Shown in pieces: positions 1 to 10,491 of a DNA stretch of 10,491 bases (the first letter of the stretch is position 1; every line of letters begins with the position of its first letter). A program made the translations under genes and the position numbers. Below the pieces are notes generated by a model that was given only the letters and a program-made list of their open reading frames with translations, was not told the DNA's origin and searched no databases. The stretch lies in IMG/VR virus record IMGVR_UViG_2690316028_000010. One strand, 5' to 3'. Origin of the DNA: a virus. Its lineage: Duplodnaviria; Heunggongvirae; Uroviricota; Caudoviricetes.

Positions 1-780
1 TTATGGCCTTGTATTTCCTTTTCTTAACTTCTTTTCGCTCTTTTTTACAAGCTTAATTAACCACTCTGGCTCATCCGACAGTTCGGAGTAATAGCAGTAT
101 TCTGGTATTGCTTTCCAAAATGTTGTTATTGCATCAGCAAATTCAACAAACTGTTCTTCTGTTACATGCAGATCATCATGAGTAGGATTGATATGTCTGC
201 CGCATATACCAGTAGGATGAGGGTAATATTCTGGATGAGTTGATGATAGGAGGCGGTGAGAATTTCCATCACCATGTTTGTACACATTTACGACTAATGC
301 GCACGCTTTGAGCTTATCGCCATAATCAGTTTCATCTATCTTGAGACCGATCCACTCGAGCAGTTTCAACAGTTGATCAAAATTTAAATCCCAAACCATT
401 GGTGTAATGATCTCTTTATCACACCAATGAGACAATTCTCTGATCGTTTTTTCTCGTAACTTTTTATCGAACTGGTGATACATACCCGCAGTTACTGCCA
501 AAAGAACAGTTTCTTGCATTTCAATAAGTGACCAGACGTAGTTTACACCCTCCTCATATGCTTGCTCATAGGCTGCCATTGGGTCGTCAAAATCAGGATT
601 GAAATGCTCAGCGGTATACTCCAGAAACTGTTTCTCTCGCTCCTCCGCCTCTTGGGTCAGATCCCCAAACTGAGACAAAAGTCTCCGTCTTGCTTCCGAA
701 ACATAAAATTCGTGAGGTTCAAGAAAATAGGGCCGATCTACTTTAGCAAGCCAAAATGTCACGAAGTTATCTGATGACAT
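1..780 (-). CDS. hypothetical protein, 259 aa, AT-rich accessory gene; function unknown
   Basis: Complete ORF: ATG at 780-778 (plus 'cat'), stop TAA at 3-1. SD-like 'aagga' about 7 nt upstream on minus strand. Protein has mixed composition, not low-complexity. Local GC is clearly lower than the central block (by-eye count of the first 120 nt ~37%). No family recognised. Confidence 0.6.
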   Translation of the reverse strand: MSSDNFVTFWLAKVDRPYFLEPHEFYVSEARRRLLSQFGDLTQEAEEREKQFLEYTAEHFNPDFDDPMAAYEQAYEEGVNYVWSLIEMQETVLLAVTAGMYHQFDKKLREKTIRELSHWCDKEIITPMVWDLNFDQLLKLLEWIGLKIDETDYGDKLKACALVVNVYKHGDGNSHRLLSSTHPEYYPHPTGICGRHINPTHDDLHVTEEQFVEFADAITTFWKAIPEYCYYSELSDEPEWLIKLVKKSEKKLRKGNTRP

Positions 781-924
781 AACTTATCCTTGATAATTAT
801 TGTATGGATAGATTATCCAGAAATTTGCGAACTGAGTCGGTCATTTTTTTTTGTGTGCGCGTGATGTAATAAAGGTTCAGGAATATACTGTCAGTTTACT
901 GAAAAACTGGCAACAGAGGCGGTT
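781..924. promoter_or_regulatory. divergent intergenic region between the 259-aa gene (minus) and the 75-aa gene (plus); presumed to hold both promoters
   Basis: 144-bp AT-rich gap with a T9 run (843-851) between two outward-facing start codons. No confident -35/-10 pair could be assigned by eye. Confidence 0.3.
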
Positions 925-1152
925 ATGAGCGAGAGTTACGAGTTCTCAGCAGGTTGTTTTTTGAAGCTATCAATATCTTCAGGGTATTTCACTATCAAAA
1001 TTCAGGGAGATCTCCCCGCTCGTGCAGCTAGTGCCATCTTGGCAGATGATGTCGAGCAGGTTTTATCTCAACTAGACAAATGTTTTCAGCTGAGTAATAG
1101 GCAACGAGAAGGGATCGTTAAGTATCTTATGTCGAAGGGGATGCAGCCTTGA
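925..1152 (+). CDS. hypothetical small protein, 75 aa
   Basis: ATG at 925 preceded by SD 'agagg' (915-919). Stop TGA at 1150-1152 overlaps the next gene's ATG (TGATG), indicating translational coupling. Confidence 0.5.
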   Translation: MSESYEFSAGCFLKLSISSGYFTIKIQGDLPARAASAILADDVEQVLSQLDKCFQLSNRQREGIVKYLMSKGMQP

Positions 1153-1610
1153 TGACTTGGATCACCCAAACAGATAACTGGACAGGGATCGCGGCGTGGG
1201 CGGGTTTTGCTTTGTCCGTATTTCAATTACTAAAATCCAGAACATCGCTAAGGCTTTATCTCGGATGTGATCAGCACGAGGACAGGATATACGTTTCGAA
1301 CATAAGCGCACACGATGTAACGTTGAGTGCAGCCGGTGTGGTAACAGCCAGTGGACGCCTTAGAATGTTATCCGACGAATATTCGGACGAGAACATGATC
1401 ACACCGATGCTGCCAAAAAGATTGAAAGCACGAGACGAAATGGTCTTGAACGTGCCATTCATAAATAAGGCTCATCACAACAAAGTGCATCATCGTGGCG
1501 GGGTTTATATCAAAACATCTGACGGCAAGATGTTCAGTGATGTTTGTTGGATCAAACGCCAATGGTGGTGGTTACTGTCTGTAATACTACGAGACACAAA
1601 GCGATACTAA
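1152..1610 (+). CDS. hypothetical membrane-anchored protein, 152 aa from ATG 1152 (ORF track starts at TTG 1149)
   Basis: Start ATG 1152 overlaps upstream stop. One N-terminal hydrophobic stretch 'WTGIAAWAGFALSVFQLL' (~1182-1235) consistent with a single TM helix or signal anchor; remainder hydrophilic with a His-rich patch (HHNKVHH). Stop TAA 1608-1610. Confidence 0.5.
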   Translation: MTWITQTDNWTGIAAWAGFALSVFQLLKSRTSLRLYLGCDQHEDRIYVSNISAHDVTLSAAGVVTASGRLRMLSDEYSDENMITPMLPKRLKARDEMVLNVPFINKAHHNKVHHRGGVYIKTSDGKMFSDVCWIKRQWWWLLSVILRDTKRY

Positions 1611-1639
1611 GTTGATTGATAGTCCGAGGTGATGTTCTG

Positions 1640-1657
1640 CCCAGCGTAGTTGCTGGG
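1640..1657 (+). terminator. weak hairpin downstream of the 75/152-aa pair (6-bp stem cccagc/gctggg, 6-nt loop)
   Basis: Inverted repeat 1640-1645 / 1652-1657. No following U-tract, so at best a weak terminator or RNA structure. Confidence 0.2.
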
Positions 1658-1690
1658 TGATACACCTTCAATGATTCTTGTTAGTGTGTA

Positions 1691-1699
1691 GGGGGGGGG
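1691..1699 (+). repeat. homopolymeric G9 tract immediately upstream of the 72-aa ORF start
   Basis: Sequence 'gggggggggc' then ATG at 1701. Upstream in-frame stop TAG at 1689-1691 places the tract in the 5' UTR / ribosome-binding region, not inside coding sequence. Confidence 0.9.
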
Positions 1700-1700
1700 C

Positions 1701-1919
1701 ATGTTGGATTTTAAAGCTGAGTTTGTTGGCGGCAGCCATAGCGGCGAGGTTATATCACCGATGTCCGAGGTAGAACTTAATAAACTAGGGTATAGAGTCC
1801 ATTTACGTGGTGCCCCCTCTGGCGATGAAATGCCTGTACACGTTGTTGTACCTATTGAATGGTCAGCGGATGAAGCACACAGAGCCATAATGCAGCGCTG
1901 GGGTAAACGCAGACGGTAG
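1701..1919 (+). CDS. hypothetical small protein, 72 aa, basic C-terminus (WGKRRR)
   Basis: ATG 1701, stop TAG 1917-1919; G-rich SD-like sequence directly upstream. Composition more protein-like than the overlapping minus-strand ORF 1607-1930 (S/P/T-rich). No family recognised. Confidence 0.45.
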   Translation: MLDFKAEFVGGSHSGEVISPMSEVELNKLGYRVHLRGAPSGDEMPVHVVVPIEWSADEAHRAIMQRWGKRRR

Positions 1920-2301
1920 ATGTCGCGCATTTCTCTTAAACTGGCTGCTGTGTTTGGTGCTAATTATCCATGCAAAGTGGCCTAAGCTACGTGGAAGAAT
2001 GATCAGTTTCGCATTATTTGGTTCAAGGAGGGCTCCCCCACAGCCTCACTCTCTGAATGCAAAACAGCCCCACAATCCCACTGTTAAAAGTCCCAGCTTG
2101 AAAATTGCACGCTTATGGTTGCCCCTCCCTCAACTCTATAGCTCGCCCGCGCCCCCGTGTGCATGTGCGTGCCCGCGCGTCAGGGGTCGCTGAGAAACCC
2201 TAAGATTTTGCTCATCCGAGACAAGCATTACCTGCACCTGTAAAACGCGAAATTACCTCTCAAACACCACACATAAACCCACTTTGCATTGAGATCTGAC
2301 A
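1920..2301. other. ~380-bp GC-rich, apparently non-coding spacer with C-rich runs and an alternating purine-pyrimidine tract
   Basis: Only ORF here (1954-2193) is Pro/Ala/Arg-rich and low-complexity. Contains 'gcccgcgc' twice (2146-2153, 2171-2178) flanking 'gtgtgcatgtgcgtg' (2157-2171). Sits upstream of the capsid-like operon. Confidence 0.4.
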
Positions 2302-2649
2302 ATGACCTTACTGACACCTGAAAACGTGGCAGCGGCTAGGGCTGCCCGTAGCGCGAGGATTGAACACTGGAAAGCCAACGCCAGCCAGCTTAAGCAGGAC
2401 TTTGCTGACGAAGCGCACTGGCGGCGGCTCGCCTCACGCTTCGGCGTGCGTATGCCCTCGGCGTATGTTCCCGGCTCCGAGCTGCGATTGCTGCGCCGGG
2501 CGGCCAAACGCGCGGGCATCTCTGGTGCTGATATGCGCGATGCTTTTGGTGGGGGCGTTGCGCACCTGCACGAGCTTAATCCCCATTGGCCTGCCTTCGC
2601 GCTTATCGGCCTGATTCTTGAGATCGCGGCTGAAAAAGCTGCTGCCTGA
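2302..2649 (+). CDS. hypothetical protein, 115 aa, Ala/Arg-rich with hydrophobic C-terminus; first gene of the capsid-like operon
   Basis: ATG 2302, stop TGA 2647-2649. Codon third positions G/C-biased, consistent with real coding in this GC-rich block. Function not recognised; a small scaffold or packaging-associated protein are possibilities only. Confidence 0.5.
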   Translation: MTLLTPENVAAARAARSARIEHWKANASQLKQDFADEAHWRRLASRFGVRMPSAYVPGSELRLLRRAAKRAGISGADMRDAFGGGVAHLHELNPHWPAFALIGLILEIAAEKAAA

Positions 2650-2717
2650 TTCATCCCATTCTCTTTTCCCCTTTTCCATAAATCGCGCTGGCTAACGCTG
2701 GCGCGGGAGCTATTTCT

Positions 2718-3713
2718 ATGACTGACAATGTTTATACCCCTGACCAATTCCGCCCGCACTGGGGCGGTGTAGATGCTGACAACGACATTCACATTGAAGC
2801 GTATGACCGGGACGTTCAGACCCGCCTTGAGGCAAAGAGCGTGTTTCTCGCCGAGGGGCTGAGCACATACAAGCCGCTGAAAAACAGTAATCAGTATCGT
2901 GTAGACCGCCTGAGCGGAGATCTGGAGGTGAAGGGCAGAACCGCAGGGCAATCGCTGGAGCCTACCGCCGTTAAGTCGGACAAGCTGATTATCTCTGTGG
3001 ATACGCTGAGCTATATCCGCATCCCGATTGACTATCAAGACGACTGGACAGCGCCCACCTTTCGCGCAGAGCTGAGCCGCAACATGGGGACAGCCCATGC
3101 AAAGTTCTACGACGAAGCGCACACTATCCAGCTAATCAAAGCGACTGACTTTGTACCGCCGCCTACGTTGCAACCAACGTTTAACCCGCTGACGGATAAT
3201 GTTGTCTCGCTCGACCTGACAACGGGGAGCGAAGAGGATGCGGCTAACGAACTGGTTCACGCTATTAAAGCTGCTGTTAATCGATTCCTAACTGAAAAAG
3301 ATATTCCGGTGGCGGAGCTGTGCCTTCTCATCGACCCAGCTTGGTTCAGCATCCTGATGGAACATAAGAAGTTGATGAACGTCCGTTACAGCCGGGATAG
3401 TGGCAATGATTACGCATGGCGTCGCGTTGGCTATGTCGCTGGGGTGCGAGTTATTGAGCTGAACAGTTACCCGCAGGAAGCCATTACCGCGCATGAACTG
3501 GGCGCTGATTATGATGTGACCGCAGGGGAAGCGCTGACACGGGCGACGCTGTTCCGGCCTGCGTCTGTACTTGTGACAGTCGAAGCGCAGAGCGTTATCA
3601 ATCGCCAGTGGGATGATGAACGCGAAATGACAATGGTGATGGACTCATATCGCCTGTTCAATGTTGGGCTGCGCCGCCCTGACTGCGTTATAAATTTCCG
3701 ACAAGCTGCATAA
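2718..3713 (+). CDS. putative phage major capsid protein (HK97-fold / T7 gp10-like), 331 aa
   Basis: ATG 2718 with SD 'gggag' ~8 nt upstream; stop TAA 3711-3713. Several segments resemble T7-type capsid proteins from memory (e.g. 'IPVAELCLLIDPAWFSILM', C-terminal 'GLRRPDCVINFR'). Followed 17 nt later by an HNH gene, a common capsid-module neighbour. Similarity is by recall, not alignment. Confidence 0.5.
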   Translation: MTDNVYTPDQFRPHWGGVDADNDIHIEAYDRDVQTRLEAKSVFLAEGLSTYKPLKNSNQYRVDRLSGDLEVKGRTAGQSLEPTAVKSDKLIISVDTLSYIRIPIDYQDDWTAPTFRAELSRNMGTAHAKFYDEAHTIQLIKATDFVPPPTLQPTFNPLTDNVVSLDLTTGSEEDAANELVHAIKAAVNRFLTEKDIPVAELCLLIDPAWFSILMEHKKLMNVRYSRDSGNDYAWRRVGYVAGVRVIELNSYPQEAITAHELGADYDVTAGEALTRATLFRPASVLVTVEAQSVINRQWDDEREMTMVMDSYRLFNVGLRRPDCVINFRQAA

Positions 3714-3729
3714 CAAAAGGGGCCGAGCC

Positions 3730-4161
3730 ATGAATATTGATGCTTATGCCCCGGAGCTGTTGCGCTCTTTGTTTCGGTACGATGCGAAGACTGGCCGCCT
3801 GTTCCATGCAGTAGACCGGATCGGAGCCAACAAGCGGATTTACGCTAAAGCCGGGGAACTGGCCGACACGGTAACGGACAGCGCCGGATATAGGCGCGTA
3901 TCTGTCCGCATCAATGGCAAATCTCATGCGCTATACGCCCACCGTGTCGCCTTCATCATTGCTAATGACGGTATCCCTGCCGGGATGCAAATCGACCATA
4001 TCAACGCGGTACGCGATGACAACCGCCTTATCAATCTCCGCACGGTTACGCCACAAGAGAACCAGCACAATTACCGCAAAGCCAAGGGTTATAGCCACCA
4101 TGCCTGCTCTGGCAGATGGGAGGCTTACATTCGCGTTGGTGATCCACCGCGCGATAAATAA
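3730..4161 (+). CDS. HNH endonuclease (HNH_3-type, phage-associated), 143 aa
   Basis: ATG 3730 with SD 'aaagggg'; stop TAA 4159-4161. Clear HNH signature 'IDHINAVRDDNRLINLRTVTPQENQHN' and the N-terminal 'GYRRVSVRINGKSHALYAHRVAFI' pattern typical of this family. Confidence 0.85.
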   Translation: MNIDAYAPELLRSLFRYDAKTGRLFHAVDRIGANKRIYAKAGELADTVTDSAGYRRVSVRINGKSHALYAHRVAFIIANDGIPAGMQIDHINAVRDDNRLINLRTVTPQENQHNYRKAKGYSHHACSGRWEAYIRVGDPPRDK

Positions 4162-4200
4162 GCCGCAATCCGTGAGATAAATGGACACGGTGCGGCTTTT
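4161..4200. terminator. bidirectional intrinsic terminator candidate between convergent HNH and tape-measure genes
   Basis: Imperfect hairpin: 'agccgca' (4161-4167) pairs with 'tgcggct' (4191-4197), inner stem 'ccgtg'/'cacgg', followed by TTTT (4197-4200) on plus strand and an A/T-rich run on the other side. Lies in the 66-bp gap between the two converging stop codons. Confidence 0.5.
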
Positions 4201-4227
4201 CAGATACTGCAAAGGAATTACAGATTA

Positions 4228-6711
4228 TCAGTCGTAAGCAACCCGGCGCTTACGGGCAAGGATAGCTTCCAGTGCTCTTTCAATCTCAGGAATGGACAGC
4301 TTAAGCGCATTGGCCACATCCGGTGCTGGTGACTTGTTCTTGCCATCAATATAGATATTGTTAATGACGTTAATCCCGCCGCCTGCGCCTGCTGGTGAAT
4401 GAGAGTCCCGGCCTCTGGGTAAGGTAAGGTCGCCGCGCATATAGCGCTCTAATACGGGGGGTACTTTCGGCACATCCGGCACCATCATATCAGCCAGCCG
4501 CGAGGAGGCTTTCAGCGCCAGTGATGCAGACTGACCAATGCCAATCGCCGCCCCTTCTGCGATATTAGACCCGAAGCCCATAAATACACGGCTTGGCGAG
4601 TGAATCCCCAGCTTTTCCTTGAACCAGCCGCCGACACTGTCACCCATCTCAGTGACGGTATTCTTGAGAGACTCCCACTTGTTTTTGATACCGTTCACCA
4701 GTCCATCAATCAAGTGACCACCAAACTCAGTAAACTGGCCGGGAAGGTCGATGTTAAACCACTTCATGACCCCCGCAAACGCCTTGTAGAACAGCCCCAG
4801 CGGCGACCAGTTCAGGATTAGCTTACTGACACCAAGAACCCCGCCGTTAAAGGCTGTTTTCACTTCCTCCCACCGCTGCGAGAACCATCGGCTTATCGCG
4901 CCCCAGTTGCGGTAAATCAGGTACGCGCCCCCGGCGATGATGGTTATCGCAATGCCTATGGGGTTCATTAACAGCGCCCTGCCAAACCAGAGGAAAGCCT
5001 TTGCCACCACCATTACGCCTCTGAACAGTCCACCCGCCAGCGCTTTACCCAGCATTCCGGCTCCCTTCGCCACGGTACTGAATCCGGTAGCCAGCCAGCG
5101 CAGCTTTCCGCCGTCGCTCAGGGCGGTTTTGAGCAACAGCCAGTTAGTGCGCAGCAGTACGGCGTTTTTCCACAACCCGGCGAACGGTGATACCAGCAGA
5201 TTCAGGCCGAGTTTCAGCCCGACAGTGGCGATTTTCAGCCCCAGCAGTACGCCCACGGTTTTTGCCACACCCTGAACAATGCCGGGATGTTGCGCTATCC
5301 ATTGCCCGGTGGAATGAATCAGCGGAATCAGTTGCTGCGTCATTGACACGAACGAGGGAGACAGTTGACTGCCAAGGGTAATGGACAGTTCGCGGGTGCT
5401 GACCATCAGTGCTTTGGTCGCCTCCAGCGGCGATTTCAGTCGCTCCGTGTAGGAGGAGGCCAGCAGGTCTTTATCCGCCGCCTTAAGTGCGCCAGCCCTG
5501 ATTTCGCGGTATTTGTCCATGTTGGCGAGCATCGGACGGACAAACGCCATGACCTGCATATCGGCGAACATCTCACCCAGACCGAAATTCTTTGCCAGTT
5601 CCTGTAACGCAAGGTCGCGGGAGTTATCGTCCTTGATTTTCATTGCTTTCTTGAAGCCTGCCAGTGCTTCCGGGCTTTTGGCCTCCAGATACCTGCCCAT
5701 GACGCTTATCATGCCCTCAATGGGCGAGACGCCAGCAGATTTATAAGCCATGAGTGACCCCTGAAGGTCAATCCCGATATCGGCAAACTGTTTCTGCGTG
5801 TCGCGGGCAAAAATCTTGGTGAGGAAGTTACGGAAGTTGTTACCAGCCTCGTCAGATGACCCGGCACCAATTCGGGCAATCTGTAAACTCGCTCCGATTT
5901 CCGCCATCGCTTCTTTACCTTCGGCAATACCGCGCATCATCGGGGCAAGAGATGGCATCCATTTCACCTGGTCAGGTATTTCAAAAGACCCTTGGTCGCC
6001 TGCAAAGGCCATGATGTTCTGTACTTTGGCAAACTCTTTAGCGCTGCCATCCATCGAGTTTTTCCAGACGGCGGCAACCTTCGCCCATTCCGTCCCTGTG
6101 GTGCGTGTGGCAGTAGCGGCGCGGGCTATATTGGGCATGAAGCTGCCAATTTCGGACACACTGTCGATATTGTCACTGATAAGCGAGCCTACGGCGTCCT
6201 GTAAGTCGCTCTGGTACTGGTTGTACTTGAGCGACCATCCCCGGATTTGCTGCCCCAGACTGGCGCGGGTTTTATCGTCATATTTCGCCGTGATCGACAT
6301 ATCAATCATCTTGTCGTCGAACGTAGCCGACTGCTGAATCGCCGGGGAAACGAGGCTGTAAGCGGCTTTGGCCTGCGCCCACGTCTCAATTCCCTGTCCA
6401 TAAAGCGCCATCCGGTTAGCTCTCAGGGCATCGGTTGTGGCAGACGCTGCCGACAGGCGGGACTGCTGGCGGTTTAGTTGCTCCAGCGTTCTGCCTACCC
6501 GTTGCAGGTCATTGTTCAGGCGTGAGGCCACGCCTGAACCTACCTGACCGTAACGCTGCATGGCGCGTGACAGGCTGCTTTGTTGCTCGGTCAGGCGGCG
6601 TGACGTGTCGCCGAGAGAATCAAGCGCCCGCCGTGTGCCGCTGACGGCGGAACGGAAGCTGCTCCCGACAATACCGCCAATCATCACACCAACAGAAAAA
6701 TTATTGCTCAT
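4228..6711 (-). CDS. phage tail tape-measure protein, 827 aa
   Basis: ATG 6711-6709 with SD 'ggagtg'; stop at 4228. Helical N-terminal region, long central Gly/Ala/Leu-rich hydrophobic segment, and C-terminal 'GIHSPSRVF'-type motif that I recall from tape-measure proteins. Size is typical. Confidence 0.75.
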   Translation of the reverse strand: MSNNFSVGVMIGGIVGSSFRSAVSGTRRALDSLGDTSRRLTEQQSSLSRAMQRYGQVGSGVASRLNNDLQRVGRTLEQLNRQQSRLSAASATTDALRANRMALYGQGIETWAQAKAAYSLVSPAIQQSATFDDKMIDMSITAKYDDKTRASLGQQIRGWSLKYNQYQSDLQDAVGSLISDNIDSVSEIGSFMPNIARAATATRTTGTEWAKVAAVWKNSMDGSAKEFAKVQNIMAFAGDQGSFEIPDQVKWMPSLAPMMRGIAEGKEAMAEIGASLQIARIGAGSSDEAGNNFRNFLTKIFARDTQKQFADIGIDLQGSLMAYKSAGVSPIEGMISVMGRYLEAKSPEALAGFKKAMKIKDDNSRDLALQELAKNFGLGEMFADMQVMAFVRPMLANMDKYREIRAGALKAADKDLLASSYTERLKSPLEATKALMVSTRELSITLGSQLSPSFVSMTQQLIPLIHSTGQWIAQHPGIVQGVAKTVGVLLGLKIATVGLKLGLNLLVSPFAGLWKNAVLLRTNWLLLKTALSDGGKLRWLATGFSTVAKGAGMLGKALAGGLFRGVMVVAKAFLWFGRALLMNPIGIAITIIAGGAYLIYRNWGAISRWFSQRWEEVKTAFNGGVLGVSKLILNWSPLGLFYKAFAGVMKWFNIDLPGQFTEFGGHLIDGLVNGIKNKWESLKNTVTEMGDSVGGWFKEKLGIHSPSRVFMGFGSNIAEGAAIGIGQSASLALKASSRLADMMVPDVPKVPPVLERYMRGDLTLPRGRDSHSPAGAGGGINVINNIYIDGKNKSPAPDVANALKLSIPEIERALEAILARKRRVAYD

Positions 6712-6742
6712 GGTTCACTCCGGTTGAGTGGTTCGGTGGGCG

Positions 6743-7336
6743 TCATTCAGTCAGGGACAGGCCGCTGATTCCGGTAATCCCGGCAATTTCTTCGCTGACG
6801 GCTGCCAGTTCACTTTCAAGCCCGGTGCGTTCGCTGACCAGTGCCGCCACGGTCTTACGGCGCTCTGCCAGTGAGGGAAGTTTGTCATTACCCCACGTCA
6901 CGCTCTTATCCTTCTTAAGCGCTTCGGTCAGTCGGGTGGCGACCACATCCGGGAAGAAAAAGCAGAGCTTGCGCATTACCGCCATCCCGGTATCAGCCGG
7001 GGGGACGTTTCCTCCCAGCCCCACCAGACGGAACAGACCGGAAATATCGCCGTTCTCATTTTCCAGATTGCCCCAGCGTTCGGCGTTCCCTTCACCGCCG
7101 GAACCGTTGCAAAGAGCACGCTTGAATGACTGATATTCTTCCTGCCCGAATCGCTCAATATATTCAGGAATAAAGGAACAGTAATCATTAAGTGATAACG
7201 GCATATCCTGTAATGCGGTTATTTCGCCATTAATATCACCAATGCGACGAGAGAGCTTTTCTTTCTGCTCATTCAGGGAGGTAAGGTTATTTTTAACGGC
7301 GTTCAGTGCTTCAATGAGGGAAATAACAGGTTTCAT
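6743..7336 (-). CDS. hypothetical protein, 197 aa, coiled-coil-like N- and C-termini; possible scaffold-like or tail-assembly accessory protein
   Basis: ATG 7336-7334 lies 1 nt after the upstream gene's TAA (taaAATG) with SD 'ggag' inside the upstream gene's 3' end; stop TGA 6745-6743. Heptad-like ends; no slippery heptamer seen at the 3' end. Confidence 0.5.
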   Translation of the reverse strand: MKPVISLIEALNAVKNNLTSLNEQKEKLSRRIGDINGEITALQDMPLSLNDYCSFIPEYIERFGQEEYQSFKRALCNGSGGEGNAERWGNLENENGDISGLFRLVGLGGNVPPADTGMAVMRKLCFFFPDVVATRLTEALKKDKSVTWGNDKLPSLAERRKTVAALVSERTGLESELAAVSEEIAGITGISGLSLTE

Positions 7337-7337
7337 T

Positions 7338-7952
7338 TTAATAACTCCAGATAAAAGGTGTAGTGAGGGTGAGCGCTTCGGAATAGGAGACGTTGCAGGC
7401 TTCGCTTACATCCTTTATTAAAAGGTGCTGCGCTGCCCTCTGGCTGTCGGCTATGCCGTCGAGCTCTGAGAAATAAACGTGTGATTCATTGTGACCAAAA
7501 CAAACCGGGTAAGCGCTTTCCATAAACTCCACCTGCTCAAGCCCCTTTACGGCTGGCGGCTGTGCGCCGAGAAAACCAATATGGCGAAGATACCAGGCAC
7601 CAGTTCCGGCCGGGTTACGCGCTTCTCCCGGCCTGTAGAAAGCGGCAGACACTTTTTTATATAGACCTGACTGAACCATATCCAGCAACCTGTTATCAGG
7701 CTTAACCAGCGCGAAAAGTCTGCCGTTTTTACTTATCAGTCCGGTGGTTTCACCATAGGCGGGACTGTTACTGGCCGGATGCCCCAGGCACAGCGGCGCA
7801 CCATAACCCGCGCGATGATAGCCGTTATAGGCTGCTGCCATGTTGTCGATATCCTCGTCGGAAAAGCTGATTTCCTGCCCCGCCATCGCGGTATGTGTTC
7901 CCGCCCGGAATATCTCAATAGTTTTCCAGTTACCAATATTGATATCTGTCAT
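7338..7952 (-). CDS. putative GPO-family prohead protease / capsid scaffolding protein, N-terminal protease-like domain, 204 aa
   Basis: ATG 7952-7950; stop TAA 7340-7338. Recalled resemblance to P2 gpO N-terminus: 'FRAGTHTAMAGQEISFSDEDIDNMAAAY' vs gpO 'FRIGVEGDTCDGRVISAQDIQEMAETF', and 'LCLGH' vs gpO 'INLEH'. Shorter than P2 gpO (~284 aa). Confidence 0.55.
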   Translation of the reverse strand: MTDINIGNWKTIEIFRAGTHTAMAGQEISFSDEDIDNMAAAYNGYHRAGYGAPLCLGHPASNSPAYGETTGLISKNGRLFALVKPDNRLLDMVQSGLYKKVSAAFYRPGEARNPAGTGAWYLRHIGFLGAQPPAVKGLEQVEFMESAYPVCFGHNESHVYFSELDGIADSQRAAQHLLIKDVSEACNVSYSEALTLTTPFIWSY

Positions 7953-7953
7953 T

Positions 7954-8481
7954 TTATATTTGTCCCTGTTTCATATCGCGGCACTCTTTGTTTTTCTTAC
8001 GCTCGGCGGCAATAATCTGATAAATCCACTGAATAGAATTGCCATATTTCCTGGCTAATTCCCGATGAGTCATCCCTTGTTTGTAATCGGAAAATATCCT
8101 GGCATTTCTGTCGAAAGAGTTTCTGGCTGCGCCATTAGGTATATAGAAATTGTTACCTTTAAAGACCCTTCTAAGGTGTTCTGTAATTTCCGGGGAAATG
8201 ATTTCGGCCTGAGCCGAAAAGCAATGTATTGTAAGCAAAGCCTGCGCTATCACACCTGTAAGCTCATGCAGAAAAGATGTTGCTTTAGGGGCGTCTTCAC
8301 ATTCTATTGGCATGTAATTCTGGCAACCACCAAGATTATCAGATATATGCAAAACAATTTTATTTGCTGCACTACTTGCCTGAAGTTGTGAATAGCCCGC
8401 ATCAGTCAGAAAATCTTCAATCGCATCCCCCATTTCCCCCAGAGTGTCAGATGTTGCGTACAATCCCTCTCTTGTAATCAT
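7954..8481 (-). CDS. Mor/C-family transcriptional activator (Mu middle/late activator family), ~175 aa from ATG 8481
   Basis: C-terminal region matches the Mor pattern: 'NFYIPNGAARNSF' (cf. Mor 'QVYIPRG'), 'RIFSDYKQGMTHRELARKYGNSIQWIYQIIAAERKK' (HTH). ATG 8481-8479 has SD 'gagg' ~7 nt upstream; the ORF-track start at 8487 is a GTG too close to the SD. Stop TAA 7956-7954, 1 nt before the next gene's start. Confidence 0.75.
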   Translation of the reverse strand: MITREGLYATSDTLGEMGDAIEDFLTDAGYSQLQASSAANKIVLHISDNLGGCQNYMPIECEDAPKATSFLHELTGVIAQALLTIHCFSAQAEIISPEITEHLRRVFKGNNFYIPNGAARNSFDRNARIFSDYKQGMTHRELARKYGNSIQWIYQIIAAERKKNKECRDMKQGQI

Positions 8482-8509
8482 AATCACACCTCGGTAATGA
8501 TAAAGATGT

Positions 8510-8614
8510 GCGCTAAAAAGGCTTTATAAAGCTTTATGAGGCGTCTTTCTGGTGACAAATCAGCACATACACCATTAACGCTTTAAAATGGCTTACAGGC
8601 TTTTTTAGCGCGGG
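8510..8614. promoter_or_regulatory. regulatory region upstream of the Mor-like gene: 12-bp palindrome, tandem 'gctttat' and flanking 10-bp inverted repeats
   Basis: 'ataaagctttat' perfect palindrome at 8526-8537; 'gctttat' at 8521-8527 and 8531-8537. 'gcgctaaaaa' (8510-8519) is the inverse of 'tttttagcgc' (8602-8611). Promoter hexamers not confidently assigned. Confidence 0.35.
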
Positions 8615-8681
8615 TTACTAATGTGGATTAAGAATATGGTTTTGGGGCGGGGATGTTTTTTAATGTACTTTAGATATGAAG

Positions 8682-8703
8682 AAGCCCCTCAGAGGAGGGG
8701 CTT
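8682..8703. terminator. GC-rich hairpin (9-bp stem, 4-nt loop) immediately downstream of the 96-aa gene; candidate intrinsic terminator
   Basis: 'aagcccctc' (8682-8690) pairs perfectly with 'gaggggctt' (8695-8703), loop 'agag'. Sits 17 nt past the TAA at 8722-8720; the flanking run on the minus-strand transcript is only moderately U-rich. Confidence 0.45.
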
Positions 8704-8719
8704 GCGGGATTACGCCAGA

Positions 8720-9010
8720 TTATTGAGGTCGTCTGTCTTTCCTCAATCCATCAAGTAGCGCCATGGCATCAGTAACCAGTATGCCAGCAGCATCCGTAAC
8801 CATCGAAACATCAGAGGATGCACATGATTTATCCATACCTAATGTTGACGCAAAATCAAGTAGCTTACGAACTGCGTCAAGTCGATAGGTGGCAGAGTCG
8901 TAAATTAACTCCTGATTAGCATCAGTCTTTAAAAACATAATATCATCAGAGGCACCTTGCGAAAATGACGGCATCGCACGGAAAGTATTTTGAGTTTCAG
9001 CCTGTTTCAT
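8720..9010 (-). CDS. hypothetical protein, 96 aa
   Basis: ATG 9010-9008 overlaps the upstream gene's TGA (ATGA, coupling); SD 'ggagg' ~8 nt upstream; stop TAA 8722-8720. Confidence 0.5.
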   Translation of the reverse strand: MKQAETQNTFRAMPSFSQGASDDIMFLKTDANQELIYDSATYRLDAVRKLLDFASTLGMDKSCASSDVSMVTDAAGILVTDAMALLDGLRKDRRPQ

Positions 9011-9744
9011 TGTGCAGTCCTCCGGCTAATAGCGAATTTATTATAAACTTCATAACTGGCAGCATTCAGTCCGGGGTTGTATTTATCAGCCAGAGCACAG
9101 GCAATCATATGTTCAATAAATTTTGTTATTGCGTTAAGTTCAGTTTCGTTTGAATAACGCAATGCCACTTTGAGTAACTCGCGGCAATATTGTTTTTTAT
9201 TCCCTTCGATTTGGCCTGATTTTTTTATTCCTGCCTTTTTATCTGATTCATCCTCAACAGGCAAAGATGGGATATCCTCTTTATTGGTTAGCGTTCTTTC
9301 GCAAATAATATCTTCACCAGATTGAATTACGCGCTGCAACTCTCTGGCGCTCATACGAAGAATATCATCAAGCGTGTGGTCGTTATATGCCCCACCACTG
9401 GCAAGGAGATCCAGTGTCACTTCATCCAGCCGGGCAAGCAGGTTTAACTTCGTTTTGCCGATACTTGTTTTGGCAATTGCGGCTCGGGGGGTATTGGTTA
9501 CGCCAAATATCAGAGCAACCCGCATAGCATTATGGGCTTCACGTTTATTAATTCCCCCCACTGAAAGCGCCTTTGCAAATTCCTCATTTGTTTTTGTTGC
9601 TTCCTTAAGTGCCAGCATCTCTTTACCACGATGCACTAAAGTTTCAGTCGGGGTTGGCAAAAGGAGTACAGCATCTAAAATTTTTTCCCGAAGTACATCA
9701 ACTTGGCTTGCGATGCATGAACGGTTAGACTTGTTGATACCCAT
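9007..9744 (-). CDS. hypothetical protein, ~245 aa from ATG 9744 (ORF track begins at TTG 9765); candidate early/regulatory protein
   Basis: ATG 9744-9742 preceded by SD 'gagga' ~9 nt upstream; stop TGA 9009-9007. Acidic/Lys-rich linker mid-protein; no P-loop or other catalytic motif recognised. Divergent from the RHH gene. Confidence 0.5.
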   Translation of the reverse strand: MGINKSNRSCIASQVDVLREKILDAVLLLPTPTETLVHRGKEMLALKEATKTNEEFAKALSVGGINKREAHNAMRVALIFGVTNTPRAAIAKTSIGKTKLNLLARLDEVTLDLLASGGAYNDHTLDDILRMSARELQRVIQSGEDIICERTLTNKEDIPSLPVEDESDKKAGIKKSGQIEGNKKQYCRELLKVALRYSNETELNAITKFIEHMIACALADKYNPGLNAASYEVYNKFAISRRTAQ

Positions 9745-9774
9745 GATTGTTATCCTCAATAACAATGGTGGTCA

Positions 9775-9809
9775 GGCAGGATGTGATACTGAACCTATCA
9801 TGTCCTGCC
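9775..9809. promoter_or_regulatory. imperfect dyad symmetry (13-bp arms, 11/13 matching, 9-bp spacer) upstream of the 245-aa gene
   Basis: 'ggcaggatgtgat' (9775-9787) vs 'atcatgtcctgcc' (9797-9809). Could be an operator or a 5'-UTR hairpin of the minus-strand transcript. Confidence 0.3.
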
Positions 9810-9840
9810 GCTTGCGGTTTTACATCTACTTAATGTAATG

Positions 9841-9877
9841 TACGTACCATTGATTTCAATCTAAACAATGGTACGTA
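9841..9877. promoter_or_regulatory. perfect 12-bp inverted repeat with 13-bp spacer (candidate operator) overlapping the RHH gene start codon
   Basis: 'tacgtaccattg' (9841-9852) and its exact reverse complement 'caatggtacgta' (9866-9877). The right arm covers the ATG at 9868-9870. Located in the divergent promoter region. Confidence 0.55.
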
Positions 9878-10071
9878 TCATGTCAAGAGTAAAAGATAAC
9901 ACGCCTAAAAATTCCGCAGGGCGTTCCCCGACCTTCCAAATACGTATTACACCTGAACTTAGGGAACAGCTTGATAAAGAAGCTCTTAAAGATGGTGTAA
10001 GTTTGGCCAATTGGCTCAAAGGCATTGCACGAGATGAACTACGCAGGAGAGGTATTTCTCCAAAAGGGTAG
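9868..10071 (+). CDS. ribbon-helix-helix (Arc/MetJ-like) DNA-binding protein, 67 aa; putative repressor
   Basis: 'FQIRITPELREQLDKEALKDGVSLANWLKGIARDEL' fits the RHH beta-strand plus two helices (cf. Arc 'FNLRWPREVLDLVRKVAEENGRSVNSEIYQRVMESF'). ATG 9868 (alternative ATG 9880), both with weak SD; stop TAG 10069-10071. Confidence 0.6.
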   Translation: MVRIMSRVKDNTPKNSAGRSPTFQIRITPELREQLDKEALKDGVSLANWLKGIARDELRRRGISPKG

Positions 10072-10086
10072 GGCTAATCAGGTACA

Positions 10087-10476
10087 AAAAGCGAAAACGT
10101 TTTCGCTTTTATGGCTAAGAGAGCGGATGCACTCATTAAAGCGGACAGCGCTGTCCGCCTCCAATCAGCAAAAAAACAAGATGGTTCCTCCAAAACGCTC
10201 AACGTTGAGCGTTACGTTATTCCGACAAAAGCGCAGGCGCTTGCGCTTTTGAAAGGGATCAACACGGCTTTCAAACCGGACAACGTTGACCGCTTTAAGG
10301 AATCACTGTCGGCTGAGCAAAAACGGCAAGCGCTTGCCGTTTTAGATTCGCGGGGCGGTAAACGTTTACCGTTCTGTGTCAATTATGTTCAAAAGCGAAA
10401 GCGCTTTCGCATTTTCTCACCTAAAGCGGCAAACCTCCTCTGTCTTAGCTGGAAAAACGACATCGCTGTCGTTTTT
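10087..10476. repeat. array of eight hairpin-capable palindromes of one family (A-tract, CG-rich core, T-tract)
   Basis: P1 10087-10110 aaaagcgaaaac|gttttcgctttt (perfect, 24 bp); P2 10141-10158 gcggacagc|gctgtccgc (perfect); P3 10194-10213 aacgctcaac|gttgagcgtt (perfect); P4 10227-10250 (1 mismatch); P5 10320-10343 aaaacggcaagc|gcttgccgtttt (perfect); P6 10356-10371 cggtaaac|gtttaccg (perfect); P7 10391-10414 (1 mismatch); P8 10453-10476 aaaaacgaca-tcgc-tgtcgttttt. Symmetry kept while sequence differs between copies. Confidence 0.85.
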
Positions 10477-10491
10477 AATCCGAGGTTCTAA
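10111..10491 (+). CDS. ORF of 126 aa overlapping the palindrome array; coding status doubtful
   Basis: ATG 10111 directly after palindrome P1, stop TAA 10489-10491 at window end. Repeated peptide motifs (KAQALALL, KRQALAVL, KRKRFRIF) are direct consequences of the DNA palindromes, so the frame may be open by chance. Confidence 0.3.
   Translation: MAKRADALIKADSAVRLQSAKKQDGSSKTLNVERYVIPTKAQALALLKGINTAFKPDNVDRFKESLSAEQKRQALAVLDSRGGKRLPFCVNYVQKRKRFRIFSPKAANLLCLSWKNDIAVVFNPRF

Follow-up and report, generated by a model that had tools for sequence, protein, structure and literature searches.

The DNA examined here is a 10,491-nucleotide stretch of a Caudoviricetes virus (IMG/VR record IMGVR_UViG_2690316028_000010), referred to as the window. 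A small rightward gene, the predicted repressor gene, stands back to back with the first gene of a leftward string that includes a Mor activator, a head-protease-like gene and a tape measure gene (Table 1). We take the repressor gene to start at the ATG at 9880, rather than at 9868, because all relatives begin with M-S at this position and because an identical E. coli protein is annotated as 63 aa in RefSeq. This start gives an intergenic region of 135 bp (9745-9879), and not the 123 bp of the original prediction. The Shine-Dalgarno sequence of the repressor gene is weak in the window, and the 245-aa gene on the other side has the Shine-Dalgarno sequence GAGGA at 9757-9753. Searches of Pfam and NCBIfam gave no function for the 245-aa or 126-aa products. 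Mor is preceded by a gap of 232 bp, in which a weak terminator-like site lies at 8697-8685, and a transcript from the leftward promoter could reach Mor only by reading through it. The palindrome just past the repressor gene is the first unit of a palindrome array and is possibly the terminator of the repressor transcript.

Table 1. Genes and predicted regulatory features of the window.
Feature	Coordinates	Strand	Details
Leftward gene string beyond the first gene	4228-9010	-	five listed genes
Tape measure	4228-6711	-	phrog_28
Coiled-coil protein	6743-7336	-	197 aa
Head-protease-like gene	7338-7952	-	phrog_976 protease, 1e-46
Mor activator	7954-8487	-	Pfam Mor, 1.7e-25
ORF	8720-9010	-	96 aa
First leftward gene	9007-9744	-	245 aa; phrog_1748; homologues named DUF3102; ATG 9744-9742
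Antisense promoter (predicted)	9703-9731	+	TTGGCT 9703-9708, 17-nt spacer, TAGACT 9726-9731
cis-Antisense RNA (predicted)	9738-9821	+	~85 nt; SL1, SL2 and U-tract 9818-9821
Repressor promoter P_R (predicted, inferred)	9812-9841	+	TTGCGG 9812-9817, 18-nt spacer, TAATGT 9836-9841
Operator site O1 (predicted)	9840-9852		left arm; core GTACGTAC 9840-9847
Leftward promoter P_L (predicted)	9858-9886	-	-35 TTGACA 9886-9881, 17-nt spacer, -10 TAGATT 9863-9858
Operator site O2 (predicted)	9866-9878		right arm; core GTACGTAT 9871-9878
Repressor gene	9880-10071	+	63 aa; predicted ribbon-helix-helix (RHH)
Palindrome AAAAGCGAAAAC followed by GTTTTCGCTTTT	10087-10110		perfect, 24 bp; 15 nt past the repressor stop codon

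The original prediction proposed an RHH protein as the repressor, and structure prediction agreed. An AF2 single-chain model (pLDDT 79) contained an extended segment near residues 17-23 (PTFQIRI), corresponding to the predicted strand, followed by helices at residues 25-37 and 42-56, with residues 1-16 modelled as a basic tail of low confidence. DSSP assigned no strand to this monomer model, as expected for an RHH monomer. The top Foldseek matches in the PDB were almost all RHH proteins, led by Arc (1myl_A, TM 0.86, rmsd 1.7 Å) and followed by 1par, NikA, CopG and AmrZ. At the sequence level, the protein matched PHROG 228 ('Arc-like repressor', E=3e-5) and aligned with Arc in hhalign without gaps (E=2.9e-4, probability 41%), such that P17, T18, Q20 and R22 corresponded to Arc P8, Q9, N11 and R13. 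Scores against domain families were borderline for Pfam HicB PF05534 (21.4 bits, cut-off 21) and below the cut-off for Pfam RHH_5 (13.6 versus 26 bits) and NCBIfam YlcI/YnfO (26.8 versus 30). Sequence matches in the PDB had E values of 0.46 or worse, and a profile search of the PDB for homology to P22 Arc and Mnt gave E=1.4 for each, so the resemblance is at the level of fold and motif only. These models support assignment of the 63-aa product as an Arc-like RHH repressor, the dimer of which would form the DNA-reading ribbon. A ParG/omega-type partition protein or global regulator, which would come with a ParA/ParF ATPase partner and a centromere of short arrayed repeats, was rejected, as the element contains no ATPase gene and the match to PHROG 795 was weak (E=3e-3).

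The perfect 12-bp inverted repeat that had been reported in the divergent region is present, with arms TACGTACCATTG (9841-9852) and CAATGGTACGTA (9866-9877) separated by a 13-nt gap, and the arms can be stretched to 15 nt at 93% complementarity (9841-9855 and 9863-9877). None of 5000 dinucleotide-preserving shuffles of 9745-9879 contained a perfect repeat of at least 12 bp with a loop of 40 nt or less; the longest repeat in the shuffles was 11 bp, which occurred four times. The palindrome said to lie inside the repeat was also recovered, in that GTACGTAC is self-palindromic. When the whole window was searched for GTACGTAC with up to one mismatch, only two sites were found, and these were the two arms; AATACGTATT at 9939-9948, inside the repressor gene, did not match at this threshold. 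The repeat had been placed over the ATG of the RHH gene, which is true only for ATG 9868; relative to the conserved ATG at 9880, the perfect arm of O2 stops 2 nt short. The 9-mer AACAATGGT, found at 9761-9769 and 9864-9872, was considered as a third operator half-site and discarded as uninformative; it is absent from relatives, and by a rough estimate a 9-bp exact repeat in 431 bp has a chance of about 1 in 3.

We compared the locus with 52 genome loci and 73 IMG/VR loci. The conserved cassette occurs in P4-like, PICI-like and transposon-like elements of the Enterobacterales and Pasteurellaceae. Across about 100 non-redundant related loci the arms were either conserved or co-varied symmetrically. 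Of 38 standard-class loci, 37 had cores spaced 31-35 bp apart, and likewise 37 had an O2 core ending within 0-1 nt of the ATG. This comparison supports a functional unit that would consist of two inverted 8-10-bp sites, 31-35 bp apart, rather than one hairpin-like palindrome. In several classes the individual site is not self-palindromic.

The sequence of the arms followed the sequence of the strand. GTACGTAC accompanied the strand SPTFQIRI in 29 of 29 IMG/VR loci and in about 40 non-redundant genome loci, of which a few have a degraded site or have lost one; this pairing held even at only 48-50% overall protein identity. Eight strand variants were found, each with its own arm sequence and with both arms altered symmetrically: APMFNVRI with GTATAGAC (L033, L055 and L079), SPIFS(V/I)RL with GTATGGAC (L034 and four loci), SPPFHMRI with GTGTACAC (L037/38 and four loci), APAFQ(I/V)R(I/M) with GTGTGTAC (L046, L056 and seven loci), SPQFKMRI with GTGGCCTC (L124 and L128) and SPQYQMRL with GTAATTAC/GTATATAC (L057) were among them. 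The variable strand residues were those at positions 18, 20 and 21, and hhalign aligned positions 18, 20 and 22 with Arc Q9, N11 and R13, the residues through which Arc contacts bases in the 1PAR complex. Gene and operator are separated by about 30 bp and co-inherited, so that protein and DNA variants are expected to be associated to some extent even without function; the argument from co-variation rests on the symmetric change in both arms and on its concentration at the aligned DNA-reading positions. Judged in this way, the comparison supports the proposal that the arms change in step with the residues that align with the base-contacting positions of Arc.

The divergent region had also been described as carrying a second dyad (9775-9788 and 9796-9809; 14 nt, 86% complementary). 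Both dyads of the original prediction are real, but the second is a predicted RNA hairpin and not an operator: its sequence, which bears no relation to that of the arms, drifts freely with compensation, and as RNA the plus strand is systematically the more stable. A third dyad, absent from that prediction, spans the start of the leftward gene (9741-9753 and 9759-9771). The second and third dyads are predicted to form a conserved, unannotated two-hairpin plus-strand RNA, antisense to the leftward gene at its ribosome site. In this RNA, the loop of SL1 (9741-9771) presents the anti-Shine-Dalgarno sequence CCUCA and its stem includes the anti-start-codon, and SL2 corresponds to 9775-9809. The fold of this RNA in the window had a free energy of -34.2 kcal/mol (z=-4.8), and none of 200 shuffles was as stable. 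The minimum free energy structure consisted of exactly two hairpins in 87 of 87 distinct relatives (median z -5.0), and in every one of these the plus strand was more stable than the minus strand. SL1 carries conserved G-U pairs, as counted on a subset, and a U-tract follows SL2 in most lineages, not in Pectobacterium. Since the MAFFT alignment takes no account of structure, RNAalifold on the whole leader yielded SL2 only in part, and the sequences were therefore folded one by one. At the gathering score of Rfam 15, the sole match among six relatives was a tRNA; in E-value mode the window region matched symR and R1162 antisense best, with 21 bits and E 0.3-0.5, far below gathering. The predicted antisense promoter sits inside the leftward gene, within codons 5-14. 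In alignment A2 the hexamer kept its T, A and last T invariant or nearly so, and the encoded residues varied. Of 65 distinct contexts, 50 had TAnnnT exactly 10 nt ahead of the start-codon complement, and one had it 9 nt ahead.

Predicted promoters for both genes lie among the operator sites. P_L was the top sigma-70 match on the minus strand across 6.4 kb (10/12). Its -35 hexamer is the complement of repressor codons 1-3, its spacer holds O2 and its -10 sits in the loop between the arms. The P_L start is predicted at about 9851, such that O1 spans approximately +4 to +12. TTGACA-17/18-TAnnnT recurred in 34 of the 46 non-redundant genome loci, and O2 always lay within the spacer. The last two bases of the P_R -10 are the first two of O1, and in most relatives TG-n-TAnnGT, a conserved extended -10, directly adjoins O1. 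P_R and the antisense promoter fell below a strict consensus scan. The predicted rightward start is at about 9848, so that both starts are between the arms.

We propose with a probability of roughly 0.8, on the strength of sequence comparison, that an Arc-like RHH repressor acts at O1 and O2 to silence P_L and its own gene, with an antisense RNA as an additional layer. Repressor dimers would reach into the major groove of O1 and O2 with a two-stranded beta ribbon; the two sites are inverted with respect to one another and lie about three helical turns apart. Since O2 fills the spacer beside the -35 and O1 covers the start site, RNA polymerase would be kept off P_L when the sites are occupied. 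This would silence the operon that begins at the 245-aa gene and would extend in the direction of Mor, the genes for protease-like and scaffold-like proteins and the tape measure. Overlap of O1 with the -10 and +1 of P_R would give negative autoregulation. Because P_L and P_R are face to face with predicted starts a few bases apart, they would be mutually exclusive for polymerase. A point against the model is the 31-35-bp spacing from centre to centre, which far exceeds that of Arc (about 11 bp) or MetJ (8 bp): cooperative binding would require DNA bending or looping; otherwise the dimers would bind independently. As a second layer, the ~85-nt plus-strand antisense RNA would block translation of the first leftward gene. 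Repression would be lifted by a signal, presumably a helper-phage product. What the computations show are the repeat and its significance, the fold, the conservation, the co-variation of protein and operator, the promoter motifs and the RNA structure; binding, repression, autoregulation, the transcript ends and the derepressing signal are what we infer from these features. The earlier proposal of an autoregulated Arc/Mnt/CopG-type repressor of the opposing operon is thus supported by fold, conservation, co-variation and promoter geometry, with the amendment that its operator would comprise two sites and abut the ATG.

Real operators might instead be read by another factor, such as a helper-phage repressor, a host protein or the 245-aa product, with the RHH protein having its targets elsewhere, for example in the palindrome array. 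The large array does adjoin the repressor gene, and in one locus (L033) the first ~55-80 codons of the 245-aa gene were exchanged together with the repressor module. However, P4-like and PICI-like carriers have identical operator sites despite an unrelated first leftward gene, and they lack the palindrome array. The repressor is the only complete protein encoded by the conserved cassette, the cargo being different and unrelated among elements; the RHH protein alone is always present, and only its strand residues track the arms. We therefore consider a different reader very unlikely.

A second possibility is that the repeat is no protein operator but a hairpin in RNA or single-stranded DNA, which would act as an attenuator, mRNA stabilizer or RNase site or occlude translation at the repressor start, in which case the co-variation of the arms would reflect base pairing. 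The arms do change together in variant lineages as a stem would, the right arm adjoins the start codon, and the two other dyads nearby are predicted RNA hairpins. Yet those hairpins behave differently: within one strand class the arm sequence is almost invariant across genera, whereas the SL1 and SL2 stems of the same cassette drift freely. Arms of the dominant class are each palindromic (GTACGTAC), which a dimer needs and a stem does not, and the arm sequence follows the aligned DNA-reading residues. In L124 and L128 the two sites read as direct copies and are not inverted. Moreover, with both predicted starts between the arms, each main transcript would contain one arm at most. A hairpin function is thus very unlikely.

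It is more improbable still that the protein is a HicAB-type antitoxin and the repeat the autoregulatory operator of that toxin-antitoxin pair, as might be suggested by the PGAP name ('toxin-antitoxin system HicB family antitoxin'), a PF05534 score just over cut-off and the autoregulation known for RHH antitoxins, given that the 63 aa are the RHH domain alone with no HicB_lk_antitox-type match in Pfam, that Pfam revealed no HicA or other toxin family in neighbouring or overlapping ORFs, that relatives often have a solitary rightward gene (e.g. Pmp8), and that the upstream neighbour is divergent and part of a long phage-type operon. Many HicB antitoxins have a C-terminal RHH DNA-binding domain, but the N-terminal HicB domain, a partial RNase H-like fold that neutralizes HicA, and an adjacent co-transcribed gene for the HicA toxin are missing here, and we rejected the HicB identity for these reasons; the RefSeq name is a domain-level carry-over.

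The proposed RHH switch has counterparts in several known systems. In the immI region of P22, Arc and Mnt act on divergent or opposed promoters, and sar antisense RNA is a second layer on the opposing gene. Our locus similarly has opposed promoters and a predicted antisense RNA on the opposing gene, and its repressor is in the same size class as these small RHH repressors and has the strand motif P-x-F-x-(L/I)-R. Arc was the best structural match and shares three aligned DNA-reading positions, although there is no significant sequence similarity. Arc binds as a tetramer to one 21-bp operator with half-sites about 11 bp apart, whereas the two sites here are 31-35 bp apart and bracket a -10. Furthermore, P22 has two repressors and is a complete phage; here there is one repressor, in satellites or islands. 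Copy-number control of plasmid pMV158 by CopG and antisense RNAII provides another case in which an RHH repressor and a short antisense RNA limit one target operon. CopG was among the fold matches, and the target is linked to replication in P4-like and PICI-like carriers as well. However, CopG represses the operon holding its own gene, whereas repressor and target are opposed here, the operator layout is unlike, and there is no relationship at the sequence level. One RHH dimer of MetJ binds each 8-bp palindromic met box (AGACGTCT), and the boxes are repeated. The 8-bp palindrome GTACGTAC and its repetition are comparable, but met boxes are adjacent (8 bp), with dimer-dimer contacts and a co-repressor, and the sites here are three turns apart. 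Coliphages 186 and P2 have face-to-face lysis-lysogeny promoters with overlapping transcripts and polymerase footprints, and a repressor site on the lytic promoter. Opposed overlapping promoters are common to these phages and our locus. Their repressors are helix-turn-helix proteins and their starts are 35-62 bp apart; by contrast, about 3 bp separate the predicted starts here, and one promoter has its -35 inside the repressor coding start.

Among the carriers, the window's copy of the cassette belongs to the transposon-like kind of satellite, an element found in about 190 complete E. coli genomes; its ends carry TGATCC... and GTGAGATAA(A/T)T repeats. E. coli AW1.7 and CX21 are among the carrier strains, as is an ST131 strain with the L055-type element. 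In P4-like and PICI-like carriers the operon leads to a primase or replication gene. The nearest genome locus to that of the window, L003, is labelled as an Advenella MAG and was 92% identical, which does not make it the origin of the window, and a DNA search with 9000-10491 against 50,697 phage records returned no match. Our literature search found nothing relevant on the operator sequence, on an RHH repressor in P4-like or PICI satellites, or on satellites of transposable phages.

The cassette appears to be an on/off switch of several kinds of phage-parasitic elements. Tentatively, and with considerable doubt, it might be an undescribed portable satellite immunity module with at least eight co-evolved specificities, which in this case would govern a new type of satellite that parasitizes a BcepMu/B3-like transposable phage. 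If so, the new satellite would be a non-autonomous transposable element of about 7.7 kb with TG...CA ends and 6-bp target duplications and without a transposase, and its cargo would be Mor, a protease-like gene, a scaffold-like gene and a tape measure. The analysis provides a testable regulatory model for a family that is mislabelled as HicB antitoxin in RefSeq. The matched strand/operator pairs, of which there are at least eight, are a natural series for changes in the specificity of a beta-sheet DNA reader, and they offer material for orthogonal small repressors. With operators, promoters and an antisense RNA predicted, a first step has been taken towards the helper signal that induces these elements.

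The best-supported model, which rests on sequence comparison, is that an Arc-like repressor would bind O1 and O2, the arms of the inverted repeat upstream of its gene. Bound repressor would shut both P_L, the predicted leftward promoter, and the repressor's own promoter, P_R, and an antisense RNA would provide a second lock on the first leftward gene, which encodes 245 aa.

The 63-aa repressor scored 21.4 bits against the Pfam family HicB (PF05534, a ribbon-helix-helix (RHH)-type domain; cut-off 21) and matched 'Arc-like repressor' in PHROGs (E=3e-5). RHH_5 was under threshold, NCBIfam YlcI/YnfO fell slightly under its cut-off, and a profile search of PDB sequences found MazE7, Mnt and Arc at E ~1 only. 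An AlphaFold2 model from 12 homologues (pLDDT 79) contained an extended segment followed by helices 25-37 and 42-56. Its top PDB structural matches were almost all RHH proteins (Arc 1myl_A, 1par, NikA, CopG, AmrZ and AtaR), and the predicted structure superimposed on Arc 1myl_A with a TM-score of 0.86 and an rmsd of 1.7 Å over 44 columns, as expected from the RHH product proposed in the original prediction. When the repressor family was compared with Arc by hhalign, the alignment was ungapped (E=2.9e-4) and paired P17-T18-F19-Q20-I21-R22 with Arc P8-Q9-F10-N11-L12-R13. In the crystal structure of the Arc-operator complex, Q9, N11 and R13 contact bases. RefSeq names the protein 'HicB family antitoxin'. 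This identity was rejected, as the 63-aa protein contains no HicB N-terminal domain and no neighbouring or overlapping ORF matched a toxin family; the name is thus a domain-level carry-over. By its modelled fold and operator logic the protein appears to belong to the RHH superfamily, and by sequence or defining features it is outside the Arc/Mnt, CopG and HicB families. The predicted sites and promoters support, with corrections, the proposal of an autoregulated repressor of an opposing operon.

Direct reading of the region showed that TACGTACCATTG and CAATGGTACGTA are perfectly complementary and 13 nt apart. The 135-bp intergenic region was shuffled 5000 times with its dinucleotide composition preserved; with loops limited to 40 nt, no shuffle contained a perfect inverted repeat of at least 12 bp, the longest being 11 bp, found four times. 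The perfect 12-bp repeat was thereby confirmed. Moreover, GTACGTAC with up to one mismatch occurred only twice in the 10.5-kb window, both times as an arm. The repeat had also been placed over the repressor ATG. Two in-frame ATGs, 9868 and 9880, could start the rightward ORF; the homologues all begin with M-S at the 9880 position, and the identical E. coli protein is annotated as 63 aa in RefSeq. Thus, the repeat does lie beside the start codon but merely abuts the conserved ATG rather than covering it.

Coordinates of features in the window and in related loci (L numbers) of other genomes
Feature	Position	Strand	Remarks
Major head protein, flanking prophage	2718-3713		phrog_267
HNH endonuclease ORF, flanking prophage	3730-4161		extends 22 nt into element
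Element, left end in window	4140		
Element copies	L001 10270-17882; L002 12001-19809; L033 4223-11994		
Sigma-70-like site	9654-9681	+	TTGGCA-16-TAAAAT, 10/12
Antisense promoter, predicted	TAGACT 9726-9731	+	TTGGCT 17 nt upstream; from fixed-distance TAnnnT
Antisense RNA, predicted	9738-9821	+	~85 nt
Third dyad	9741-9753 / 9759-9771		repeat finder; over start of leftward gene
Leftward gene start	ATG 9744-9742	-	Shine-Dalgarno GAGGA 9757-9753
Second dyad	9775-9788 / 9796-9809		repeat finder; 86%
P_R, predicted	TAATGT 9836-9841	+	TTGCGG 18 nt upstream; from sequence comparison
Perfect inverted repeat	9841-9852 / 9866-9877		
Lengthened arms	9841-9855 / 9863-9877		repeat finder; 15 nt, 93%
P_L, predicted	TTGACA 9886-9881; TAGATT 9863-9858	-	17 nt between; 10/12
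Palindrome array	10087-10476		continues past window end
Palindrome array in relatives	L002 17950-18565; L003 7553-8114; L033 10200-10750; L055 23369-24008		
126-aa ORF	10111-10491	+	
34-bp inverted repeats	L002 18629-18662 and 18881-18914		past window end

Nearly every homologue is preceded by two inverted copies of an 8-10-bp core. The standard-class core is (G)GTACGTAC(C); here the copies are 31-35 bp apart start to start (most commonly 34), and 0-1 nt separates the end of the right copy from the ATG. The DNA between them is not conserved; the arms in the window look like one long palindrome because of an inward extension, CCATTG, in this lineage. In two loci, from Pantoea sp. and Rosenbergiella (L007 and L011), a single GTACGTAC site is fused to the ATG and the O1-O2 segment including the leftward -10 is absent, the outcome that recombination between the two repeats would give. 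One site is degraded in L042, L045, L049 and L050.

Repressor beta-strand sequences and the arm cores that accompany them
Strand	Arm core	Loci
SPTFQIRI	GTACGTAC	~40 non-redundant genome loci, with loss or degradation of one site in a few; 29/29 IMG/VR loci, including where the proteins share only 48-50% identity overall
APMFNVRI	GTATAGAC	L033, L055, L079
SPIFS(V/I)RL	GTATGGAC	L034, L087, L089, L098, L102
SPPFHMRI	GTGTACAC	L037/38, L109-L113
APAFQ(I/V)R(I/M)	GTGTGTAC	L046, L056, L088, L104-L108, L114, L122
SPQFKMRI	GTGGCCTC	L124, L128
SPQYQMRL	GTAATTAC / GTATATAC	L057

In every variant class the change in the core is mirrored in both arms. As several variant cores are not self-palindromic, it is the two-fold symmetry of the entire O1-O2 unit that is kept. 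The strand residues that vary are 18, 20 and 21, of which 18 and 20 align with DNA-reading side chains of Arc; R22 is invariant. Some association between protein and arm is expected from linkage alone, since the gene and its sites are ~30 bp apart. Nevertheless, the symmetry of the arm changes, together with the clustering of the residue changes at reading positions in a protein that otherwise drifts, argues for recognition of the arms by the repressor.

P_L was the best minus-strand match in the whole 6.4-kb element part in a strict consensus scan. The repressor gene opens with ATG-TCA-A, which read on the opposite strand supplies the -35 hexamer of P_L, and ATGTCAA is near-universal in the repressor family. 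O2 occupies the P_L spacer, the -10 lies within the repeat loop, and O1 covers about +4 to +12. TTGACA-17/18-TAnnnT was present in 34 of 46 non-redundant genome loci, with near-consensus hexamers in most others. On the other side, an extended -10 (TG-n-TAnnGT) abuts O1 in most relatives, its final two bases being the first two of the core. The predicted starts, ~9848 rightward and ~9851 leftward, both fall between the arms, so that the promoters would be face to face and mutually exclusive, and neither main transcript should carry both arms.

In all carriers the cassette extends leftwards through a T-rich stretch (in most lineages, not Pectobacterium), a GC-rich hairpin corresponding to the second dyad, GGTYAG, and another hairpin, with the complement of the leftward Shine-Dalgarno sequence as its loop and that of the start codon within its stem, and ends in the first few codons of the leftward gene. 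When the two hairpins were folded separately, plus-strand RNA was more stable than minus-strand RNA for both in 44/44 sequences. With IMG/VR loci added, all 87 distinct sequences formed exactly two hairpins (median z -5.0 versus shuffles) at a median pairwise similarity of only ~0.55, and all 87 favoured the plus strand, by a mean of 10 kcal/mol. The window RNA (9737-9824) folded at -34.2 kcal/mol (z=-4.8). For 18 diverse sequences aligned with MAFFT, the first hairpin in plus-strand order (third dyad) was 86% paired, versus 27-50% in slid controls, with conserved G-U pairs at two positions that would be C-A mismatches on the opposite strand. Among 65 distinct contexts, 51 had TAnnnT ahead of the start-codon complement, at a distance of 10 nt (9 nt in one). 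The T, A and final T of this hexamer show little or no variation, whereas the amino acids encoded opposite vary. From the folding results and the conserved TAnnnT, we read this segment as a predicted cis-antisense RNA that would mask the ribosome site of the 245-aa gene. The second dyad, originally taken as part of the switch DNA, is instead assigned, like the third, to a predicted RNA hairpin. A scan of six relatives against Rfam 15 at gathering score returned only a tRNA; in E-value mode the best matches in the window region were symR and R1162 antisense (21 bits), far under their gathering scores. The antisense strand of the 245-aa gene also carries a strong sigma-70-like site, ~50 nt upstream of the conserved promoter. 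This site is presumably lineage-specific, as other carriers lack the 245-aa coding sequence, and it could give a longer antisense transcript.

The protein database held only 11 homologue clusters. A pattern scan of one genome per species identified 52 loci in Enterobacterales, often several copies per genome (Pantoea, Pectobacterium, Brenneria, Serratia, Erwinia, Xenorhabdus, Morganella, Buttiauxella and others), and IMG/VR supplied 73 more, mostly on contigs of 8-18 kb. GenBank phage records contributed the Pasteurella element Pmp8 and one Klebsiella record; an E. coli ST131-type variant was located via its cargo. Citrobacter freundii has a recorded protein 100% identical to the 245-aa product, which makes Citrobacter the probable origin of the window. 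Elsewhere the cassette accompanies other cargo: P4-like elements with a P4-type integrase, DUF927/Toprim primase and Psu, islands bearing defence cargo, and a PICI-like Pasteurella element whose leftward operon leads to a primase. In L033, the cargo of the window (92-97% identity) is combined with a different repressor, arms and 245-aa N-terminus. Relative to L002 (17368-18394), ~1 kb is exchanged (L033 ~9590-10580) between elements otherwise 91-98% identical, comprising the repressor, both arms, the antisense region, the start of the 245-aa gene (about 55-80 codons) and the first palindromes. This mosaic pattern is that of phage immunity modules and heteroimmune phages. The Mor and 96-aa genes (window 7954-9010) are only 32-66% identical between elements with 100% identical repressors, a further mosaic joint.

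Homology to E. coli begins at window 4140, and 4140-10491 represents most of a 7.6-7.8-kb element. The element occupies unrelated chromosomal sites (the dacD-sbmC interval in CX21, within ynbC in AW1.7, and elsewhere in Intestinirhabdus). Its ends are precise (5'-TGATCC...CTAATCA-3'), three independent insertions have 6-bp target duplications (ACTCAT, AGTGAA and CCACGG), and GTGAGATAA(A/T)T repeats are found close to the left end (one) and the right end (two). No transposase or integrase was found in the element. Its cargo includes Mor, protease-like, coiled-coil (scaffold-like) and tape measure genes, with a Mu gp27-family gene past the window end. TG...CA ends and a Mor-protease-scaffold order are those of BcepMu/KS10-type transposable phages (PMC2628397), and the element has the appearance of a non-autonomous satellite that depends on a BcepMu/B3-like transposable phage. 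The ST131-type variant lacks the tape measure gene and adjoins a tRNA-Ser gene; 193 complete E. coli genomes matched, mostly by cargo matches like that of this variant. Window 1-4139 belongs to a different prophage, and the element is apparently inserted in the 3' end of its HNH endonuclease gene, given the extension of that ORF into the element.

Perfect palindromes 20-32 bp long and lacking a loop, 7-11 in number, lie downstream of the repressor gene and follow the pattern AAA(A)-N5-8-(A/C)(A/G)C|G(C/T)(T/G)-N5-8-TTT(T). Their arms vary between copies and between orthologous copies, yet remain palindromic; window 1-9700 contains only one palindrome of comparable quality. The array, found only in the Mor/tape-measure element type, precedes the gp27-family (small-terminase-like) gene; it may serve as a packaging site or an origin, or may form hairpins in RNA or single-stranded DNA. 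The overlapping 126-aa ORF is probably not a gene: it had no family match, is not kept as an ORF in L003 or L033 and is called as just 79 aa in E. coli by RefSeq. The right part of the element also contains 34-bp perfectly complementary inverted repeats ~220 bp apart, present in L001, L002, L003 and L033.

In its logic of repressor plus antisense RNA the cassette resembles P22 immI (Arc/Mnt and sar) and pMV158 CopG with RNAII, and in its promoter layout the face-to-face switches of phages 186 and P2. Unusual features are sites 31-35 bp apart that bracket a -10 and a target promoter whose -35 is encoded by the first codons of the repressor gene. More novel, as leads rather than conclusions, are a portable cassette of multiple specificities, an unannotated antisense RNA and a transposon-like satellite.
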